In this document: one piece after another, positions 7,171 to 62,895 of the stretch | Numbering within the stretch: position 1 is the stretch's first letter | Layout of the letters: each line of letters begins with the position of its first letter | NCBI RefSeq assembly: GCF_963921235.1 | Contig: NC_086097.1 | Location: forward strand, 133,426,001-133,490,000 | Direction of reading: 5' to 3' | Length of the DNA: 64,000 bases | Origin: Mobula hypostoma | Taxonomy: Eukaryota | Notes under the pieces: model-generated | Seen by the model: only the letters and a program-made list of their open reading frames with translations | Told to the model about the DNA's origin: nothing | Databases searched by the model: none | Translations under genes and position numbers: made by a program

Positions 7171-7835
7171 TTTCCTCCAAAAATACTTTATTCAGAATTA
7201 TTACAAAATAAAGTTATTTACATATAAGAAAAAACATTCATTGACTCTCAGTCCTTATTCAATAAAGTTATTTACAATAAAATTATGCGTTGACTCTCTG
7301 TTCATATACAAATGAAAGATGTTTACAATAAACTGTTCATTTACTCTCAAACCTTGGTCAAGAGTTAAGACTTATTAACAATAAAATTATCAACAATAAA
7401 GGCAGGCATTGGCTCTAATGCTTTTTCCAAATTAACAATTCCACCCACTCCTGGGGCACCATGTTGATTATCTGTCCACACCGCTGATGAGGGCTAGTCT
7501 CCTCCCCACCCAACCCCTCACACTCCCACGGGTGATGAACCTTAAACTGTGGTCCTTCCCCACTGGGCCTTCGCGGTGGCCGCACCAAGCTTGAGTGCCT
7601 CCCTCAGCACGTACTCCTGCAGGCAGGAGTGAGCCAGTCGGCAGCATTCAGTCACGGGCATCTCCATGTGCTGGCAGACCAAAGCGCGTCTTTCACCGAA
7701 TTGATGATCTGCCAGCAGCACCGGATGTTTGTCTCCGTGTGCGTCCCCGGGAACAGCCCGTAGATCACGGAGTCCTCGGTAACGCAGCTGCTGGGCATGA
7801 ATCTTAGCACTGTCCCTTCCATTCTCCTCCACACC
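7171..7835 (-). mobile_element. Tx1-clade LINE 3' fragment
   Basis: C-terminal ORF2 peptides VTEDSVIYGLFPGTHTETNIRCCWQIINSVKDALWSA and LQEYVLREALKLGAATAKAQWGRTTV*, then an AT-rich 3' UTR with AATAAA and A-tail. Confidence 0.8.
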
Positions 7836-8396
7836 TTCTTTATTTACCCTTGCCATTTCTTAACTCAACCCATAGAGACTCTACACCTTCTGATCCTATG
7901 TCATTTTGAACAGTTCTCTAGTATGATAGGAGGGAATCTTGGGACTCTTGACCTCACAATACCTCATTATGACCTTGCACTTTTTGTTTGTTTGCACTGT
8001 ACTTTATCTGTAACTAAAATTTTATTCTGCATTCTGTTATTGTTTTAATACCTCAATGCACTGTGTAATGATTTGATCTGCATGAATGATATGCAAAACA
8101 AGTTTTTTTTTCCTCCCGGTACCTTAGCAATTTAAGTGAAAAATCATTACTTCAACAGAAGACCATAAGACACAGGCCGTTCAGCCCATCAAGTATAAAA
8201 TCACTATACATATTACAAAATAACGGCAACCATACTGAAGACTAGTTAAAGGGCACCTATCACCTTTCAATCTATTAAAAAACCACATGTAAACAAGCAC
8301 ATGCAATATTTCACCTCTTCTTCCTAAAAACAGAAAAATACAAACATACAAACATCACCCATAAAACACCATCAGTCCTTCACACCCTAAATCAGC

Positions 8397-10262
8397 TGGT
8401 GTACTGTATGGCCAACAGTATAATAAGGGACTACTTTACGTTGCATGCGTTATAGAAACATAGAAACATAGAAAATAGGTGCAGGAGTAGGCCATTCGGC
8501 CCTTCGAGCCTACACCGCCATTTATTATGATCATGGCTGATCATCCAACTCAGAACCCTGCCCCAGCCTTCCCTCCATACCCCCTGACCCCCGTAGCCAC
8601 AAGGGCCATATCTAACTCCCTCTTAAACATAGCCAATGAACTGGCCTCAACTGTTTCCTGTGGCAGAGAATTCCACAGATTCACCACTCTCTGTGTGAAT
8701 AAGTTTTTCCTAATCTCGGTCCTAAAAGGCTTCCCCTCTATCCTCAAACTGTGACCCCTTGTTCTGGACTTCCCCAACATCGGGAACAATCTTCCTGCAT
8801 CTAGCCTGTCCAATCCCTTTAGGATCTTGTACGTTTCAATCAGATCCCCCCTCAATCTTCTAAATTCCAATGAGTACAAGCCCAGTTCATCCAGTCTTTC
8901 TTCATATGAAAGTCCTGCCATCCCAGGAATCAATCTGGTGAACCTTCTTTGTACTCCCTCTATGGCAAAGATGTCTTTCCTCAGATTAGGGGACCAAAAC
9001 TGCACACAATACTCCAGGTGTGGTCTCACCAAGGCCTTGTACAACTGCAGTAGTACCTCCCTGCTCCTGTACTCAAATCCTCTCGCTATAAATGCCAGCA
9101 TACCATTCGCCTTTTTCACCGCCTGCTGTACCTGCATGCCCACTTTCAATGACTGGTGTATAATGACACCCAGGTCTCGTTGCACCTCCCCTTTTCCTAA
9201 TCGGCCACCATTCAGATAATAATCTGTTTTCCTATTTTTGCCACCAAAGTGGATAACTTCACATTTATCCACATTAAATTGCATCTGCCATGAGTTTGCC
9301 CACTCACCCAACCTATCCAAGTCACCCTGCATCCTCTTAGCATCCTCCTCACTGCTAACACTGCCACCCAGCTTCGTGTCATCCGCAAACTTGGAGATGC
9401 TGCAGTTAATTCCCTCATCTAAGTCATTAATATATATTGTAAACAACTGGGGTCCCAGCACTGAGCCTTGCGGTACCCCACTAGTCACCGCCTGCCATTC
9501 TGAAAAGGTCCCGTTTATTCCCACTCTTTGCTTCCTGTCTGCTAACCAATTCTCCACCCACACCAATACCTTACCCCCAATACCGTGTGCTTTAATTTTG
9601 CACACTAATCTCCTGTGTGGGACCTTGTCAAAAGCCTTTTGAAAATCCAAATATACCACATCCACTGGTTCTCCCCTATCCACTCTACTAGTTACATCCT
9701 CAAAAAATTCTATGAGATTCGTCAGACATGATTTTCCTTTCACAAATCCATGCTGACTTTGTCCGATCATTTCACCGCTTTCCAAATGTGCTGTTATCAC
9801 ATCCTTGATAACTGACTCCAGCAGTTTCCCCACCACCGACGTTAGGCTAACCGGTCTATAATTCCCCGGTTTCTCTCTCCCTCCTTTTTTAAAAAGTGGG
9901 GTTACATTAGCCACCCTCCAATCCTCAGGAACTAGTCCAGAATCTTGAAAAATTCTCACTAATGCATCCACTATTTCTTGGGCTACTTCCTTAAGCACTC
10001 TAGGATGCAGACCATCTGGCCCTGGGGATTTATCTGCCTTCAATCCCTTCAATTTACCTAACACCACTTCCCTACTAACATGTATTTCACTCAGTTCCTC
10101 CATCTCACTGGATCCTCCGTCCCTTACTATTTCTTAGGCACATATTGATCTGTACATGTGTGCTGAGTTCGGATTATGCCAGTAAAGAACCATGAAACTT
10201 AGCTCCTGTCTCCAGCGTTTTTATTAATAGCATTGTTGTGTAACCAGGCTACATACACAACA
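8397..10262 (+). mobile_element. 5' LTR of Gypsy element, split by a CR1 insertion (LTR parts ~8397-8451 and ~10135-10262)
   Basis: 3' part ends ...ACACAACA just before the PBS and contains AGTAAA; the putative 5' part starts TGGTGT, an imperfect inverse of the 3' end; the left boundary is uncertain. Confidence 0.6.
8452..10134 (-). mobile_element. 5'-truncated young CR1 LINE with uninterrupted RT ORF (8550-10103, 517 aa)
   Basis: KSPGPDG, YRPVSLTS, YLDFQKAFDKV, GVPQGSVLGP, FADDTK motifs without stops; (TTTCTATG)n 3' tail. Confidence 0.96.
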
Positions 10263-10265
10263 AAT

Positions 10266-10276
10266 TGGCGACAAGG
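10266..10276 (+). promoter_or_regulatory. Primer-binding site, tRNA-Ser(GCU) type
   Basis: TGGCGACAAGG 3 nt after the LTR end; one mismatch (CpG decay) from TGGCGACGAGG, the complement of the tRNA-Ser(GCU) 3' end. Confidence 0.75.
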
Positions 10277-10648
10277 CTAATGAACCTACATCGTATCGAA
10301 ACGCCGTGTTTTAATTGATAACGACACTCGGAAGAAGAGCGCAAGGAACTAGCCAAAGAGCGGAAGGAGGAGGCAGAGTGAGGCCACGAGTCTGAAAGGA
10401 AGCGGGAACACAGCCGGGGTCAGCAACGTCGGGAGACCAAGAGACACAGTCCGAGCCACAGCACGTCCTGCCGAGACCACAGCTGGCGCTGACCCTCAGG
10501 GACTGAGGGTCTACCTGCCCCAGAAGGGAGATAAAAAGGAGCGAGACACACACATCCAGATGGAGTGCACTCATGGCGCTAGCAAAAGGGACACGCGAGT
10601 CAAAAAAGGAAAATAAGGGGAGAACGGGGCTTAATTAACATAACAAAG

Positions 10649-11840
10649 ATGGCGATGATTGGAACCATTACAGCATTTGATAGTGGCATTGAAAACTGGG
10701 CAACTTACATTGAAAGAGTGGAATTATATTGTGAGGCTAACAGTGTTAAGGACGAAAAGAAAGCCAGCACCTTACTCAGTATTATGAGTGCAAAAACATA
10801 TGGCCTGCTACAGAGCTTGTTAACCCCTGAAAAGCCAGCTGACAAAACATTCAAGTAAATAGTAGACACTCTCCAACAGCATTTAAACCTCAAACCACTG
10901 GTCATTGCTGAAAGATTTAAATTTCACAATTGGAATCAGAGCAAAAATGAAAGCATTTCTGAATATTGTACTGAATTGTGCAAATTATCGGAACGTTGTC
11001 AATTTGGAGTTGGTCTATCAGATGTATTGAGGGACAGGTTAGTGTGTGGCATGCACTGTGAAACCACACAAAAGAAGCTTCTGTGTGAAAGAGACCTTAC
11101 TTTCAAGAAAGCGCTAAACATTGAAATATCAACAGAAACAGTGGCACGGGATGCTTCCGAGATACAACAAAAATCTCTGGAATATGCCACAAATAAAATG
11201 TCACTGAACAGGAATGAAGGGAAGAAATGTTACCGTTGTGGGAACAGGTCACATGACCCAGATGGCTGGTGGTTTAAAGACAAAGAATGCTGAAACTGTG
11301 GCAAACAGGGCCACATTGGCAGAGTATGCAAAGCTAGTCAACAGCAGAAAAAGGGCAAAACACAGAGAAACAAGAAACCCCAGAAAGGAAAATACAACAA
11401 GGCACACAAAATGAAAGAAGGCAGTTCTGATGAAAACGACTCCAATGAAAGTGAATTGTCTTGTCGGCAACTTCACAGCGTGAAAGAGACAGACGATCGA
11501 AGAGTAATATGCATCACTCCACAAGTGGCAGGCGTGAGACTGAAAATGAAATTGGACACAGGCTCAGCCTTAGCAGAGATCTCTGTACATGACTACAAAT
11601 GATTATTTTCCTCACATATCTCTGAAATGAACTAAAGTACTGCTAAAGACTTACACAGGACAGAAAGTGCGTCCCAAAGGTAAAATTAAAGTGACAGTGA
11701 CCTACAGAGACAAAACACAGCAACTGAACCTCTATGTACTGAAAAATGGAGGACCACCGTTACTGGGACGTGAACGGCTCAGGAAAATCCAGTTGAGTTG
11801 GCACACAATCAAGGCACTAGATGTGTCAACAAAGGGGGGC
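10649..11840 (+). mobile_element. Gypsy (Mag-like) gag-protease, inactivated by stops and one frameshift
   Basis: MAMIGTITAFDSGIENWATYIER, LRDRLVCG, two CCHC-type knuckles (CYRCG..H, C*NCGKQGHIGRVC), protease LDTGSA, LLKTYTG, PPLLGR; ORF pieces 10649, 10976 and 11411 share one frame. Confidence 0.92.
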
Positions 11841-11855
11841 AGCTCAGCGGGGAAG

Positions 11856-12502
11856 ATGTCCACAGCTCTCCTCTCACCCACTGTCGATTATTACAACGAC
11901 GAGGAGGAGCTAGACAGCATTGACGATGAGGACAATGCAGTATCTGTAGCCGTGACTCAGATGAAGATAGAGGATGCAAGGGAGACAGATGTTGCCAATA
12001 AGCAGTATGATGAAGACTACCTGGAAGTAAAAGAGCAGATGTACCAGAAGAAATTGACATCTCTCAAAAGACAGCTACAGCAGTTACAGGAAGGCACTTA
12101 GCAGGAGTATCAGAAAAGGATGAAGAAACTAGATCAACAATACAAGAATACGAAATGCAGAGCTTTTTCTGCAACTGAAGACAGAACAAGTGGAAAGGAA
12201 TTATATTAAAGAGAAGAAAGCAGCAGTGAAGGAATTTGAAGATAAAAAGATTGAGTTAGAAGAAAAGAAAAAGATGATTGAGAATGAGAGGCTATCAATA
12301 GAACTCACAGGAGATTCTATGGAGGTAAAGTGAATAATGACTAGGAAACTAAGGAGGAGACCTAATGACCCTGTTCCAATTACCAACAAAAGACGAAAAC
12401 ATGCACCTGCGCTGTTAAAATACTTGTTAACAGATGAACAGATAATGGAAGATCTGCGAACTCTCAATAAGCTTAAATCTCCAAAATGACCAGCATCTCC
12501 AT
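11856..12502 (+). pseudogene. SUDS3: SUDS3 (Sin3-HDAC subunit SDS3) processed pseudogene, 5' part
   Basis: Intronless [119 protein letters not shown]; matches recalled vertebrate SUDS3; has stops and indels. Confidence 0.95.
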
Positions 12503-13473
12503 TCAAACAGAACAGTTTTCACACAAAGTAAATCTCAAACCAATCATTTCCTCCATTGAGAATCATACACTTAATCCTTTGCAGGAAAGTTTCTTTTGCA
12601 AGTACATATTCTGAATCCTCAGCCAATGTGTCTTGTTTTTCACAAAGAAGTTGGGAAACATCATCAAAAGCGAGGCAAATTCTGGCAACAAACTGTAAGG
12701 TTTCTACTGTTGTATTTTCACAGTTGTGCTGAATGTGCACCTGAAGGAATTCTCCCCCTTGAGCCAGACTGCAGGTAATCCTTAATATCAGCAAAACTGC
12801 ACTTTAACAGCAGCTTAAGAACAATGGAATGAACAACAGGATTTCAATCAACTGCTTCATCAAACGGTGAATGATTACTGGTAAAGTACTGATCTTTCTG
12901 TAAGTCATTGGATTGTCCCGAGTTTTGAATAACTAGCAGAGACAGCAGATCACCAACTACTTCTTTGCTGGTGGCAAGTGATCTTTGAAACAGACCATGG
13001 AAACCGAAGCTATGAAAAATGCATCACACCTCTTGCGAAATATGACTAATTTTGCTACAGCTTCACTTATTTCTTCTGTTACCACTACTACTACTACTAC
13101 GTCGACTCAGGCCTAGGGGGTACATAATTATCATCTACAGAAGTACGGCACAGTGGGCAGAGTCGTTGTCCTGATTCAAGCCACCGCTTTATACATCTTA
13201 AACAGTAAAAATTATCACATGGAAGCAGGATGGGATCACTGAGTTCTCCTAAACAAATTGTACATTCTTTCAGATCATACCTGAAGAACAGACATCCTGC
13301 ACTATTTTCACAGTCCGAGGACTTGAACCACAGCCCAAAAGAGCCCTCGGGATCTCACATCAAAGTTACTGTTCAAACTCTTTGCAAGTTGACCAACATA
13401 GAATGCAACCTTGTTCTCCAATTTATCATGTATTTCTTTAACTTCCAAAATGATGTGTTCCACAAAAAGTGAT
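12503..13473 (-). pseudogene. RNF213: RNF213 (mysterin) processed internal fragment including the RING finger
   Basis: SLFVEHIIL..., RING CTICLGELSDPILLPCDNFYCLRCIKRWLESGQRLCPLC (13148-13264), FRKRCDAFFIASVSMVCFKDHLPP, SPFDEAVD*NPVVHSIVLKLLLKCSFADIKDYLQ, VETLQFVARICLAFD, NDWFEIYFV*KL; colinear with recalled human RNF213; flanked by AGCATCTCCAT duplication. Confidence 0.9.
13086..13117 (-). mobile_element. 32-bp extreme 3' end of a non-LTR element with (GTA)n tail
   Basis: Minus strand CCTAGGCCTGAGTCGACG(TAG)n interrupts the RNF213 codons YVP|VVTEE; family not determined. Confidence 0.55.
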
Positions 13474-13765
13474 AGCATCTCCATCTTCTCCTGAGCATCT
13501 TCCCAGCACTCCTGCTGAATCACCAACACAAAGATATGAAGCAGAAATAGAAGATTGAAAGTTATATTACGATTAGAGATGGTATCATAAAGGTCAGGCT
13601 ATCTATTTGGAATCCAAGGAGAATACGAAGACTGGCTGTGTAATTAGCTCAGTTGGAACAAATGAGATATGGGTAAGGAAGACAAGTGATAGCACAAAGA
13701 TGCGTCTATATCTAGGACAGCTGCACAGACGAGTCTTCATTATACGGAGGCGATCTGCTGCCTAG
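13474..13765 (+). pseudogene. SUDS3: SUDS3 processed pseudogene, 3' part to the stop codon (3' UTR continues to ~13860 with ATTAAA at 13851)
   Basis: [94 protein letters not shown]. Confidence 0.95.
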
Positions 13766-13871
13766 AACTCTTAGCAAGTTGGAGGCGCACATCTTCTTAA
13801 CTCCCTATGCTCGGAGGTCAACTTTTCATGACTTTTATATGGAAATCTGTATTAAAACAAACAAGGTTATT

Positions 13872-13910
13872 GACAGACATTACCCGGAGAGGCAGAGAAG
13901 ACCCCCCCAC
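13872..13910 (+). mobile_element. Gypsy integrase extreme C-terminus remnant
   Basis: Encodes DRHYPERQRRPP, matching the RRYPxRxRRPP ending typical of Mag-like Gypsy pol; short, so moderate confidence. Confidence 0.6.
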
Positions 13911-26305: not shown

Positions 26306-28230
26306 TATACTTTATACTTTCTTTATTGTCGCCAAACAATTGATACTAGAACGTACAATCATCATAGCGATATTTGATTCTGTGCTTCTCGCTCCCTGGA
26401 TTACAAATCAATAGTAAATATTAAAAATTTAAATTATAAATCATAAATGGAAAATAGAAAAATGGAAAGTAAGGTAGTGCAAAAAAAACTGAGAGGCAAG
26501 TCCGGATATTTGGAGGGTACGGCCCGGATCTGGGTCAGGATCCATTCAGCAGTCTTATCACAGTTGGAAAGAAGCTGTTCCCAAATCTAGCCGTACAAGT
26601 CTTCAAGCTCCTGAGCCTTCTCCCAGAGGGAAGAGAGATGAAAAGTGTGTTGGCTGGGTGGGTCATGTCCTTGATTATCCTGGCAGCACTGCTCTGACAG
26701 CATGCGATGTAAAGTGAGTCCAAGGATGGAAGATTGGTTAGTGTGATGTGCTGCACCATGTTCACAATCTTCTGGAGCTTCTTCCGTTCTTGGACAGGAC
26801 AACTTCCATACCAGGTTGTGATGCACCCTAGAAGAATGCTTTCTACAGTGCATCTATAAAAATTAGTGAGGGTTTTAGGGGACAGGCCAAATTTCTTTAG
26901 TTTTCTCAGGAAGTAAAGGTGCAGGTGGGCCTTCTTGGCAGTGGACTCTGCTTGGTTGGACCAAGTCAGGTCATTCGTGAATTTGACCCCGAGGAACTTA
27001 AAGCTTTTGACCTGTTCCACTTGCGCATCACCGATGTAGATTGGGTCATGCAGTCCGCTACTCCTTCTGAAGTCCACAACCAATTCCTTCGACACACATC
27101 AAAGTTGCTGGGGGAATGCAGCAGGCCAGGCAGCATCTCTAGGAAGAGGTACAGTCGACGTTTTGGGCTGAGACCCTTCGTCAGGACTAACTGAAAGAAG
27201 AGCTGGTAAGAGATTTGAAAGGGGGAAGGGGAGGGGGATCTCTTACTAGATCTTGGATCTCCCCCTCCCCCTCCCACTTTCAAATCTCTTATTAGCTCTT
27301 CTTTCAGTTGGGCCTGACGATGGGTCTCGGCCCAAAACGTCGACTGTACCCCTTTCTAGAGATGCTGCGTTCACCAGCAACTTTGATGTGTGTTGCTTGA
27401 ATTTCCAGCTTCTGCAGATTTCCTCGTGTTTGCGTTTTTAAAAACCAATTCCTTCAGCTTGCTGACGTTGAGGGATAGGTTGTTGTCTTTGCACCATGCC
27501 ACCAGGTTCTTAATTTCCTCTCTGTACTCAAACTCATCATTACCCAAGATACGGCCTACAATTTTTGTGTCATCAGCAAACTTATATATTGAGTTTGATG
27601 GAAACTTGGCTACACAATCATGGGTGTACAGTGAGTACAGCAGGGGGCTGAGTGCACAGCCTTGTGGGGCACTGCTGCTCAGAGTGATTGCAGAGGAGAG
27701 CTTGTCCCCTATTTTTACAGCCTGGGTCCTGTCTGTGAGGAAGTTGAAGATCCAGCTGCAGATCTGAGTGCTAAGGCCCAGGTTCTAGAGCTTAGGAATC
27801 AGTTTATTTGGAATGATGGTATTAAAGGCAGAGCTGTAGTCAATGAAAAGGAGCCTTACGTATGCGTCTTTATTCTCCAGGTGTTTCTACGGAGGAATGT
27901 AGGGCCAGAGAGATGGCATATGCCGTTGACCTGTTGTTTCTGTAGGCGAATTGCAAAGCATCGAGGTTGACCGGTAGGCCGTGGCTGATGTGTGCCATAA
28001 CCAATTGCTCGAAGCACTTCATAGCAATTGATGTCAGAGCCACAAGTCGATAGTCATTCAGGCATGCCACCTCGCTCTTCTTCGGCACTGGGATTATCGT
28101 TGCCTTCTTAAAACACGAGGGGATCTTAGACTGAAGCAAGGAGCATTTGAAGATGTCAGCAAACATGCACAGGCCCAGAGAACCTGTCCCGGGACGCCAT
28201 CTGGGCCCGTCGCCTTCATTGGATTTATCC
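26306..28230 (-). mobile_element. Rex/Babar LINE (RT to 3' end) with a Penelope insertion
   Basis: [58 protein letters not shown]; (AAAGTAT)n tail. Confidence 0.92.
27091..27442. mobile_element. Penelope insertion formed of two inverted termini, each with a hammerhead motif
   Basis: 13-bp TSD AACCAATTCCTTC at 27078-27090 and 27443-27455; ~150-bp inverted arms. Confidence 0.88.
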
Positions 28231-47906: not shown

Positions 47907-50900
47907 ATACACTCAGCAGCCACTTCTTTAGTTATCTCCTGTATCTAGTAAAGTGGCCACTGAGTGTTAGTTTGTGGTCTTCTGCTGCTGTAGCCTGTTC
48001 AGTACTTCAAGGTTTGATACGTTGTGCATTCAGAGACATGTGGTTTTTTGAGTTACTGATGGCTTCCTGTCAGCTTCAACTAGTCTAGCCCTTTTCTTCT
48101 GACCTGTCTCATTATCAAGGTACTTTCGCCCACATAACTGCCAATCACTGGGTATTTTTTCATTTTTTTGCACCATTCTCTGTAAGCTCTAGACTGTTGT
48201 GTGTGAAAATCCCAGGAAATCAACAGTTTCTGCAATACTCAAGCCACCCCATCTGGCATCAACAATCATTCCACACTCAAAATGTCAGTACCTCCAGTTG
48301 AACTCTGTCTTGTTGTGTGTTTCCCCCTAGCTGTCAGTCTGTGGATTTGTTTTGCCATGTGCTCCTGCTCTACTCTGGCCCCTGTATTACTGAGTACTCT
48401 GTCTCTCATCTGTTCCTCATTGTTACCTGTATTGCTGCCACCTGTGTCTCATTGTGCTCCACCTATCATCTGCCACTCTGTTTATTACTCAGTGTATTTC
48501 AATCCTGTGTTTTCACCTGTTTGCTGCCAGATTGTGCCAGTGAATTATCCTGAGTCTTTCCAGCAGTCATGTCTGTACTCTGTGTGAATATCAACTCTGC
48601 CTGTTTCCCATTCTGGTTTTTGGATTTGTCTGGATGTTTTGATCTCTGCCTGAACTTTGACACCAACTTTGTTTGCACCTCGGGATTTGTTACTCAATTA
48701 ATATCACTGTGTGCACAGTACCGGGTCTGCGATTGGATCCTTGCTCCAGCGCCTGATAGTACAATCTGGGCAGAATGGATCTAGCAGACCCCGGTCGTCT
48801 GAGAGCTGTCCTGGAACAACGGAGTGATGCTGGGGAGACGCCAGAACCAGCTGGACTCCGTGTTCAGGGTAGTGGAGTTGCTTTCTGCCAATGTAGCCGA
48901 TCTTGTGGCCCAGACTCAGTCACCTCAGCTGTCCCAGGGTGCCCATCAACATTCTGCGACTGCATCTTCCATCCTGCCCTCTCTGTCCTCGCATGCTCCT
49001 CCTATCCAAGAGCCCTGTCTGCCTCCTCCAGAAAAGTACACAGGTGAGCCCGGTACCTGCCGCTCTTTTCTTTCCCAGTGCACCCTCATTTTTGAATTAC
49101 AACTAACAACCTTTCCAACTGATCGAGCCAAGGTGGCCCACGTCATCACTCAACTATCCGGTTGGGCGAGAGAATGGGGAACAGCCGTCTGGGAGGCAGG
49201 CTCACCTTTCTGCATCAGTTTTCAGTTATTTTCTGAGGAGATGAGAAAAGTGTTTGATCGCTCCAAACATGGGAGAGAGGCTGCCCATGAAATGCTGCAC
49301 ATGCACCAGGGGTGCAGATCTGTGTCAGATTATGCAATAGAGTTCCGGACCCTAGCCACCTCCAGCGGCTGGAACTCGGAGGCACAGTACGACACCTTCC
49401 TGAATGGCCTCTCCGAAGACATCAAAGGTGAGCTGGTCACCCGGGACCTTCCTGCCACCTTTTGAAGTCCTGGTGGTTTTGGCCATCCGTATTGATGTTC
49501 ACCTTCAGCAGCGCCGCAGAGGAAGAGGTTCCAGAGGGTCCCTGGGGGCACTGAGTGAGTTCCAAGCTCCTCATCAGACTACATTGCCCTGCCGTTTGCC
49601 CCCATCTACAATTCCTGTTCCAGAGCTCAAAGCTATAAAGGTTGACTGTACCCGCCTGACACCGACTGAAAGACAAAGAAGAATCAGCACCCATTCCTGT
49701 CTGTACTATGGCCAACCAGACCACTTCATCTCCAGCTGTAAGCTCACCAGTAGGATGAGGAGTACTGGTGAGTGTGACCCCTGTCCAGCCCTCCTCGATG
49801 CCACTCACTCCCATACCTGCTTCGCTGGAGTGGGGCAGCCAATGGCGAGCAACCTAAGTCTTGGTGTTTTATTGATTCTGGCTTGGCTGCCCAGTGGGGA
49901 TTACCCACATCTGCCCTCCAGTCACCATTGGTGGCCAATGCTTTGAATGGTCAGAAACTGGCTAACATCACCCATGTCACAGCCCCGGTGAGTCTCAGTT
50001 TTTTCCGGCAACCACCATGAACAGTTAACCCTTTATGTTATTGACTCTCCTCAAGCTCCCCTCCACTCTCCGCCGCATTCATCCCACCTTCCATGTGTCC
50101 CACATCAAGCCTTTCATGAGCCACCCCCTGTATCTTGTCCCCAAACACCCCCCTTCCCTCACGGCTCATTGATGGGTCAGAGGCCTTCACGGTGCGTCAA
50201 CTGCTGGATGTTTGTCGCCAGGGCTGTGAACTGGGAGGGCTACGGTCCTGAGGAGAGTTGCTGGGTCCCTGCCCGTAACATCCTGAACCCGTCTCTCATC
50301 AGGGACTTTCATCTCCAGAACCCAGCTCTACCTGCCGTGATGCCAGGAGGCGTCCGAAGGGGGGTGGGTGGTGTACTGTCAGTACCTCCAGTTGAACTCT
50401 GTCTTGTTGTGTGTTTTCCCCCTAGCTGTCAGTCTGTGGTTTTGTATTGCCATGTGCTCCTGTCCCCACTCCTGCTCCACTCCAGCCCCTGTATTATTGA
50501 GTACTCCGTCTCTCACCTGTTTCTCATTATTACATGTCTTGCTGTCACCTGTGTCTCATTGCACTCCACCTATCATCTGCCTCTCTGTTTATTGTTCAGT
50601 GTATTTCAGTCCTGCGTCTTCACCTGTTTGTTGCCAGATTGTGCTAGTGAATTTTCCTGAGCCTTTCCAGTATTTGTATCTGTACTCTGTCCATCTGAAT
50701 ATCAACTCTGCCTGTTTCCTGATTCTGGTTTTTGGATTTCTCTGGATGTTTTGATATCTGCCTGAACTTTGATGCCAACTTTGTTTGCACCTCATGATTT
50801 GTTACTCAATTAATATCACTGTGTGCACAGTACTCGGTCTGCGATTGGATCCCTGTGCCAGCGCCCTGGCACAAAATTACTTAGATCAGATTTTGTCCCC

Positions 50901-61639: not shown

Positions 61640-62895
61640 CAGGACTCCCCAACCTTTTTAGCACCGCAGACCATTTTAATATTGACAATATTCTTGTGGA
61701 CCGGTTGACGGGATGGGGGGGGGGATGGTGGAGGGGTAATGTTAATCATGAGCGGAATATAGGTGATAAGTCAACTATAAGTCACTAGTCAGTGGCTAGT
61801 ACACTCAATTTCATTTCTAAAGGGGTTTATCTAACAAATTTAATATTAAACACACAGCGCATATTTTCCTCACATGAATGTAGTGATAAGTTAATTCTAA
61901 CAGTGGTCCCAAACCTCCGGGCCACGGACTGATACATTGCCGCAAAGAATGCAGCAGTACAGTGGTAGCCGGAACGCACCCAGCACATCTTTAAGTAAAA
62001 AGCCGAAATAAACAAGCTAATTGATTAGGTGCCGCCCAGCACGTAAATGTCGGCCCAGATCAGAGGCGACACAATCGGCAATCGCCTCTGATCTGGGCCG
62101 ACATTTACGCGCCGGGCGGCACCTAATCAATTAGCTTGTTTATTTCGGCTTTTTTCTCAAAGATATGCTGGGTGTGTTCCGGCCACCGCTGTACCGCTGC
62201 ATTCTTCGTGGCCCAGAGGTTGGGAACCACTGAATTATAAGTCATTTATAAGTCAATAGCATCATAACATTTTAAATAATGTTTGGATATTAAACACACA
62301 GCACCTATTTTCCTTGTATGAACATATAAAATCATTGCAACACACCAATATCGCTGAATCAGTGGGAGCCCTGGGCTTGTTTTCCTGTAACAAGACAGTC
62401 CCATCGAGGGGTGATGGGAGACAGCGATACTCGAAGGGATTCCTTATGTCCAGTCTATTCCGCAATTTAGTTTTCTTTGCATTCATTGCAGAAAACTCCG
62501 CTTCGCAGCGATATGATGTTGGAATTGGAAGCAGTGTTTTCAGTGCTTTTGTGGCTATCTCAGGATATTCATCCTTGACTTTGATCCAGAATGCCGGCAG
62601 AGATGTTTTGTCAAACATACTTTTCAGCCCACTGTCATTTGCAAGCTCAAGGAGTTGACCTTCTTCCCGCGCTGACATGGAAGATTCACCGGGAACATTC
62701 ACAAATGGGTCACAGACCCATTCCTTTGCATATCTTGGGTCACTGCTGACCTCGCGTGCGTTAAAGTTCAACAGTGGGCATGACAGGAAATGAGGAAAGG
62801 TGCAGCTGACTCATATCGTTTCATATCGCCAAATCATATCATTTCCTCGTGGCCCAGTAGCACATGCTTTGCAGACCAGTGGATGGAGACCACTG
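61640..62895 (-). mobile_element. Deleted hAT (Charlie/Buster-like) transposon with C-terminal dimerisation-domain remnant
   Basis: Perfect 8-bp TSD CCTTAGCG (61632-61639, 62896-62903); CAG...CTG termini; FWIKVKDEYPEIATKALKTLLPIPTSYRCEAEFSAM..KTKLRNRL. Confidence 0.92.
61901..62232. mobile_element. Palindromic hAT MITE nested in the hAT element
   Basis: CAGTGGTCCCAAACCTC / GAGGTTGGGAACCACTG termini; near-perfect 8-bp TSD AATTCTAA / AATTATAA; nearly the whole element is an inverted repeat. Confidence 0.9.

Follow-up and report, generated by a model that had tools for sequence, protein, structure and literature searches.

The stretch of Mobula hypostoma DNA analyzed here (hereafter 'the window'; 64,000 nucleotides of contig NC_086097.1, G000:C1:133426001-133490000, in a genome of 3.48 Gb) contains a Gypsy long terminal repeat (LTR) element in which gag and protease are joined to spliced sequence of the host gene SUDS3. 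We consider it very probable that a Gypsy element captured a spliced SUDS3 mRNA, and that the resulting chimera was amplified in trans, captured further mRNAs in series and carried SUDS3 as passenger cargo. A sequence-only reading of the window had proposed LTR-mediated capture replacing the reverse transcriptase (RT)-RNase H-integrase core, and this proposal is supported by alignment to pol-bearing relatives of the element ('helpers'), by the loss of all introns of the parent gene and by microhomologies at the junctions.

Helper family and junctions

With a protease-RT query, 14,048 candidates were obtained, many of them belonging to other families; 150 were scored, so that loci bearing pol number at least 150. 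The best 12 helpers showed 82-90% identity to the window across LTR, gag and protease, and in 12/12 the match stops at 11843; 11 of the 12 follow the window exactly to this position and then continue into RT. The abrupt switch that had been suspected at ~11835-11845 was thus placed at 11843/11844, and the pol sequence between the two junctions is indeed missing. The integrase end, where the match restarts at 13872, was visible in six of the 12 extended helpers, as GACAGAC or a near variant followed by RRYPERQRRPP and a stop. Window positions 13872-13910, where DRHYPERQRRPP had been read as the end of a Gypsy integrase, match this C-terminus and are not solely SUDS3 3' untranslated region (UTR) or another repeat. 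Because the helpers match on both sides, one family owns both flanks of the complementary DNA (cDNA), which has taken the place of RT, RNase H and almost the whole integrase. In tblastn searches, polyprotein P0005 (Pfam RT, RNase H and rve) matched colinearly along the helper copies in the order gag-protease-RT-RNase H-integrase; by this predicted domain order, the autonomous partner is a Ty3/Gypsy LTR retrotransposon. By sequence similarity, the family resembles K02A2.6-like polyproteins, and the gag and protease of the window share 54-63% identity with the N-terminal parts of the best-matching Gypsy polyproteins, P0001-P0006.

The parent SUDS3 gene was found through an exon-end pattern with four matches, three of which are element copies and the fourth the parent itself (G000:C78:8439661-8380300; 12 exons, a coding sequence (CDS) of 319 codons). 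All 11 parent introns are absent from the copies, including intron 7 (G000:C78:8398854-8395736), an AT-AC intron of the minor spliceosome type that is cleanly gone from the captured copy. Alignment to the parent mapped both junctions and revealed a 7-nt microhomology at each: GGGCAGC, common to the helper and the SUDS3 5' UTR, on the left, and GACAGAC, common to the helper and the SUDS3 3' UTR, on the right. Microhomology of at least 7 nt was found in 0.065% of 200,000 random helper-by-mRNA breakpoints, a probability of 0.00065 per junction. At the left junction SUDS3 is in frame with gag-protease.

The right end occurs in two forms: R1, seen in the window with its 7-nt microhomology, and R2, which carries 220 nt more UTR. 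The 3' UTR had been read as running to an ATTAAA at 13851 with no poly(A) tail; both the hexamer and the absence of a tail were verified, but the hexamer is not the mRNA end, since the parent 3' UTR extends past it and 16 A-type and four B-type copies retain ~220 nt more. Parsimony favours R2 as the earlier form, in which case R1 would have arisen when a chimera subsequently switched to helper RNA. The right junction of the window copy may reflect later recombination between chimera and helper rather than the original capture.

Anatomy of the window copy

The window copy is a truncated, decayed B2 member of the family. Its parts are as follows.

8400..8451, plus strand: first part of the 5' LTR, starting TGT; other copies and helpers match at 84-95% over 44 nt where their LTRs begin
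8452..10134, minus strand: fragment of a long interspersed nuclear element (LINE), a later insertion in the LTR and not part of the element; 527-codon stop-free RT-like frame
10135..10262, plus strand: second part of the 5' LTR, ending ACAACA at 10262; other copies match it in both of their LTRs over ~129 nt
10266..10276, plus strand: primer-binding site (PBS) of the TGGCGAC type, TGGCGACAAGG; same position in most two-LTR copies and in both two-LTR helpers
10649..11450, plus strand: gag with two CCHC-like knuckles; ATG at 10649, frame broken by stops at ~10856 and ~11291
11451..11843, plus strand: aspartic protease (LDTG; DTG motif at 11555-11563) and linker to the switch; stop at ~11603, frameshift near 11611-11630
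11837..11843, plus strand: left microhomology GGGCAGC, in helper pol and SUDS3 5' UTR alike; junction in frame
11844..12502, plus strand: tail of the SUDS3 5' UTR and spliced CDS exons 1-9; parent gene, Pfam Sds3, PDB 4zqa and 2n2h
12498..13475, minus strand: antisense spliced RNF213 mRNA fragment in eight exon pieces; RING domain at 13100-13270 (Pfam RING)
13476..13765, plus strand: SUDS3 CDS exons 10-12 (capped Tudor domain; PDB 7sxi), severed from the 5' part by the RNF213 insert
13766..13878, plus strand: SUDS3 3' UTR, its initial 113 nt, without poly(A); parent last exon
13872..13910, plus strand: right microhomology GACAGAC (13872-13878) and final integrase codons; helper 3' ends, parent 3' UTR

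The LTR end, PBS, gag and protease reported from the sequence alone were all recovered. The interval first given for the element, 8397..13910, does hold a Gypsy element, but 8452-10134 within it is the later minus-strand LINE that splits the 5' LTR; this LINE, which we take to be of the CR1 type, is repeated elsewhere in the window and is absent from the LTRs of other copies. The PBS is presumably that of tRNA-Ser(GCT); ARAGORN found no tRNA in the window. The claim of an entire intronless SUDS3 CDS at 11856-13765 held for the ATG at 11856, the stop at 13763-13765 and the loss of introns, but not for an uninterrupted frame: the interval is 1910 nt long, whereas the parent CDS has 319 codons, the antisense spliced RNF213 segment at 12498-13475 had been overlooked, and 24 nt of exon 6 are absent. 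The 5' part of SUDS3 in the window also carries private frameshifts and stops, in addition to the 24-nt in-frame deletion near 12251, which is family-wide. The element breaks off in a C-run after 13910, where other copies continue into the polypurine tract (PPT) and LTR; therefore the PPT and the 3' LTR, already reported as not visible, are gone. With its 3' end lost and its 5' LTR split by the LINE, the window copy itself has neither an LTR pair nor a target-site duplication (TSD), and the reported absence of a TSD around its cDNA was confirmed.

Several other features of the window were noted. A TAC microsatellite has grown at ~13083-13119 within the RNF213 insert of the window copy only, where other copies have 3-4 letters. 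CR1-like repeats are abundant in the genome as a whole. A minus-strand stop-free frame at 7542-7859 resembles what we take to be the C-terminus of a Tx1/L1-like LINE protein. Direct repeats ~2.1 kb apart at 48362-50865 (87-92% identity) may be a further pair of LTRs or the result of a tandem duplication, and the near-perfect inverted repeats at 61939-62212 and 27082-27403, with arms of 131 and 109 nt, are probably foldback pairs of short interspersed nuclear elements.

Size, insertions and age of the family

We searched the genome with a 711-nt junction query, and all 40 scored matches (of 608 candidates, the window itself aside) aligned at 91-93% over essentially full length; a query from the SUDS3 C-terminus gave 150/150 scored matches (381 candidates). 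Exact motifs were found 151 times for the chimeric junction (protease end-SUDS3 5' UTR), 92 times for the helper and 15 times for the window-type RNF213 junction, and reversed control patterns of the junction motifs gave no match genome-wide. Since the exact motifs occur in 16/40 chimeric, 8/12 helper and 9/24 RNF213-junction copies already known, the calibrated numbers are roughly 380 chimeras, 140 helpers and 40 window-type RNF213 junctions.

The suggestion that the chimera had moved as a non-autonomous family agrees with these counts and with the insertions themselves. Both LTRs were present in 19 of the 43 chimeric sequences examined, as pairs of ~200-225 nt (TG...CA) accompanied by PBS and PPT, and a 5-bp TSD was exact in 11/19 of these and had at most one mismatch in 16/19, every one different. 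Two helpers also have an LTR pair, with PPT and 5-bp TSD. The 24-nt in-frame deletion, which lies between short direct repeats, was found in all 65 copies covering the site, so the family has a single origin; a common junction and deletion combined with distinct TSDs indicate secondary retroposition from one capture. The LTRs of the chimeras differ on average by 9.5% (4.5-11.9%). Substitution rates are near 1e-9 per site per year, and at this rate the divergence would correspond to tens of millions of years, a rough figure. DNA contigs of two other organisms span the protease-SUDS3 junction, and one spans the RNF213-SUDS3 junction (4 of 24 runs examined).

Further mRNAs in the chimera

The first 30 listed junction loci comprised 18 with SUDS3 alone, eight bearing RNF213 and four cut by other insertions. 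The RNF213 insert is ~970 nt of spliced antisense mRNA, a second capture common to a subfamily. Its parent lies at G000:C68:48810686-48833701, and the insert matches it exon by exon in antisense at 89-100%; copy L036 matches RNF213 in the PDB with E=1.3e-40, and in a sister copy the insert translates to RNF213 residues 3968-4126 of PDB 9g08 (E 1.4e-40). B1 copies exit SUDS3 at CTCCTGA and keep ~70 nt more RNF213, and a 138-nt piece is kept in some and lost in others. B2 copies, including the window, carry both deletions, and SUDS3 resumes at the start of exon 10. An 11-nt repeat flanking the insert (12492-12502 and 13474-13484) was considered as a TSD and rejected, because the longer B1 copies show it to be a remnant cut by deletion. 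The RNF213 exon beyond the B1 junction was not found within ~16 kb, so the microhomology there may exceed 7 nt.

A third mRNA was seen in copy L106, which contains a cold-shock-domain (Y-box) sequence (Pfam CSD, 1.9e-20). The Y-box junction was spanned over the whole query in 22 of 40 scored matches. The carriers (L106, L132-L143, L146 and L147; for example G000:C1:126318594 onward) hold a Y-box piece of ~710 nt in the order gag-protease, SUDS3 5' part, Y-box, antisense RNF213, SUDS3 3' UTR, integrase tail and LTR. The junction has an 11-nt common stretch and is in frame in six of nine readable copies; a likely parent exon 1 lies at G000:C75:3305166-3305343. In one further copy (L026:5844-6154), the RNF213/SUDS3 junction is duplicated, and the 311-nt duplicate lies immediately after the PBS, ahead of gag.

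Decay of the cargo

Next, we compared SUDS3 in 68 copies with the parent. The normalised ratio of nonsynonymous to synonymous substitutions (N/S) was 1.08 for transitions and 1.05 for transversions, and it stayed near 1 in singletons and shared classes alike, with no drop in the shared classes (Fisher p 0.51 and 1.0). None of 50 copies had an intact full-length SUDS3 frame. Purifying selection on the cargo frame was therefore not detected in these data, which have low power on the stem branch. Because the copies decay neutrally, SUDS3 looks like a passenger, and the earlier idea that a chromatin-silencing cargo mattered receives no support from the substitution pattern. Since the gag-protease tree is star-like, the data neither demonstrate nor exclude selection on the founder, and selection acting on source elements is difficult to discern. 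Pairwise N/S in gag-protease (2.17 in chimeras, 1.92 in helpers) was uninformative, and the tree gave no resolution of subfamilies and no test of monophyly.

Near-fixed differences from the parent CDS comprise 10 synonymous and three replacement changes, in addition to ~10 fixed UTR differences. Two of the replacements are presumably element-derived. The remaining one was placed as element-derived through PDB 7sxi. The 10 fixed synonymous differences are unpolarisable and compatible with change in the parent lineage alone; the copies are ~3% diverged at non-CpG sites, so the fixed differences can be explained in that way.

Two sequencing runs presumed to be RNA gave no contig across the protease-SUDS3 junction. 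In one of them (X16), the SUDS3 mRNA of the parent was recovered, which retains the 24 nt, together with an RNF213 contig of 12.6 kb. The other (X20) yielded a contig of 529 nt that lacks the 24 nt and ends at the microhomology; this contig may be DNA or collapsed copies.

Origin of the chimera and alternative explanations

Based on these results, we propose the following course of events. A Gypsy element whose gag and pol share one frame would have co-packaged spliced SUDS3 mRNA. Near the integrase end, RT would then have switched from the element RNA to this mRNA and copied it from within the 3' UTR to a point 12-19 nt upstream of the ATG, before returning to the element at GGGCAGC, directly after protease. 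Such a product would keep LTRs, PBS, PPT, gag and protease and lose RT-RNase H-integrase. The helper family may then have amplified it in trans, in a single burst to several hundred copies, while active descendants probably recombined again, with antisense RNF213 first and Y-box mRNA later, and shed pieces through short-repeat deletions. Every copy seen now is dead.

The SUDS3 segment could also have entered as a LINE-made retrocopy in a genomic Gypsy copy, with pol, tail and TSD deleted later and amplification following. CR1-like LINEs are abundant in the genome, and the R2 junction lacks microhomology, as this route would allow. However, the hallmarks of a LINE processed pseudogene (poly(A) tail, TSD around the cDNA, intact target) are not present; no copy examined has a tail, TSD or left-side pol remnant, and no tailed, TSD-flanked SUDS3 retrocopy was seen among them. 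Moreover, the left boundary of the missing pol falls at the 7-nt helper-mRNA microhomology, and the LINE route needs two separate deletions trimming both cDNA ends. This origin is thus largely refuted, and we regard it as very improbable. For the RNF213 insert only, target-primed entry into a copy already integrated in the genome, by way of a LINE or of break repair and not through a switch within the particle, has almost as good a chance as not of being correct. The longer B1 insert is antisense, begins at a 7-nt match (CTCCTGA) and finishes at a 3-nt match (CAG); the B1 left and B2 right junctions combined leave 22 nt of SUDS3 on both sides, resembling a TSD with internal priming; and ordinary minus-strand switching onto sense mRNA cannot yield an antisense insert. 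However, a switch during plus-strand synthesis onto mRNA with re-copying would be expected to give identical anatomy, the insert has no poly(A), the lineage went on recombining with mRNAs in the later Y-box capture with its 11-nt common stretch, and no single copy with both full RNF213 junctions was seen.

It is also conceivable, though unlikely, that the same capture spread because its cargo was useful, with a Gag-protease-SUDS3 fusion, its coiled coil shortened, acting against Sin3-HDAC silencing, or antisense RNF213 RNA against a host restriction gene, and that this caused the burst. The whole SUDS3 CDS was captured in frame in a founder whose frame was apparently open, the Y-box junction is likewise in frame, chimeras are more numerous than helpers, and the 8-residue deletion lies within the solved coiled-coil segment of PDB 4zqa, described as the dimerisation region in the part of PMC8800102 available. 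However, N/S is ~1 whatever the frequency class, the copies are nearly fixed for the deletion and for three amino-acid changes, SUDS3 was broken up or largely lost in subfamilies that spread successfully (in B it is split before exon 10, and C retains only ~125 codons), and the fixed synonymous and UTR differences (~3-4%) are not above the expectation for the parent lineage itself. A still more speculative version, to which we give somewhat less credence, makes the shortened SUDS3 of the founder polyprotein a decoy for Sin3-HDAC silencing that let the chimera out-multiply its helper, with antisense RNF213 RNA and the in-frame Y-box RNA chaperone as counter-defence. If this speculation is true, a retroelement would be building counter-defence out of host mRNAs.

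Several observations weigh against capture followed by passive amplification. Microhomology was looked for at the R2 right junction, and none was found. The founder apparently had an open frame, since no gag-protease frameshift recurs in more than two of 58 copies and no SUDS3 frameshift in more than four of 68. Both sense captures, SUDS3 and Y-box, are in frame, for which a pure passenger model must invoke chance at about 1 in 9. Chimeras exceed helpers by ~2.7 to 1 in a rough calibration, the copy estimates rest on small calibration sets picked by similarity (16/40; 8/12), and the gag-protease tree is weakly supported (7/36 inner branches starred).

Comparison with known systems

Oncogene-transducing defective retroviruses are helper-dependent, with cellular cDNA replacing pol and a gag-onc fusion in frame. 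The SUDS3 family differs from them in its Gypsy backbone, with no env seen and no sign of cargo selection. Closer parallels are the LTR-mediated animal retrocopies of Tan et al. 2016 (PMC5131818), for which the accessible text describes intronless mRNA in place of internal open reading frames, microsimilarity at the switches, multi-gene chimeras and secondary retroposition. The present family shares replaced internal frames, an intron-free copy of a multi-exon parent, microsimilarity, absence of tail and TSD, and secondary retroposition. Its anatomy is thus that of LTR-mediated retroposition, a mechanism already known from that text. However, the retrocopies described there occupy one to a few insertion sites, whereas the SUDS3 family numbers several hundred, exceeding its helper, and has added at least three host mRNAs stepwise, one of them contributing its entire CDS in the reading frame of gag-protease. 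Maize Bs1, as presented in the same accessible text, is likewise an LTR element with pieces of three host mRNAs and switch points common to its copies, but has one to five copies per genome; the SUDS3 family is vertebrate and ~hundredfold more numerous, with no sign of constraint in its cargo. DNMT-carrying retrotransposons, in the available part of PMC5890265, also acquired a host chromatin-silencing gene, whereas the SUDS3 element is non-autonomous and its cargo decays neutrally. That retrocopy arrays can produce silencing RNAs (PMC9674220, available portion) is a precedent rather than evidence for the antisense idea.

The accessible text of a preprint (bioRxiv 10.64898/2026.06.26.734816) places SUDS3 in the top five of genes that gave rise to retrocopies in cartilaginous fishes; the retrocopies are treated there as LINE-driven and selection-filtered, with non-LTR elements alone mentioned. 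In contrast, the SUDS3 copies described here go back to a single capture whose product multiplied as an LTR family, which probably explains this rank, as far as that text shows. SLU7, also in its top five, gave five exon matches at one intron-containing locus (G000:C21:67570344-67576725), with no burst of copies. We found no published description of a SUDS3-carrying Gypsy family in the open literature, that is, outside subscription journals and Repbase/Dfam. Scale and serial capture are the new part.

Significance

The family offers a direct, testable explanation for the rank of SUDS3 in cartilaginous fish retrocopy counts. It also calls for caution, in that such counts may mirror one capture multiplied by transposon amplification and not germline expression or selection, and annotation pipelines will call the copies SUDS3, RNF213 or Y-box paralogues. 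The family provides many replicates for studying junction rules, recombination with helpers and the fate of cargo. Thus, it represents a vertebrate case in which one LTR-mediated capture very probably gave rise to several hundred copies that outnumber their helper and record successive mRNA captures.

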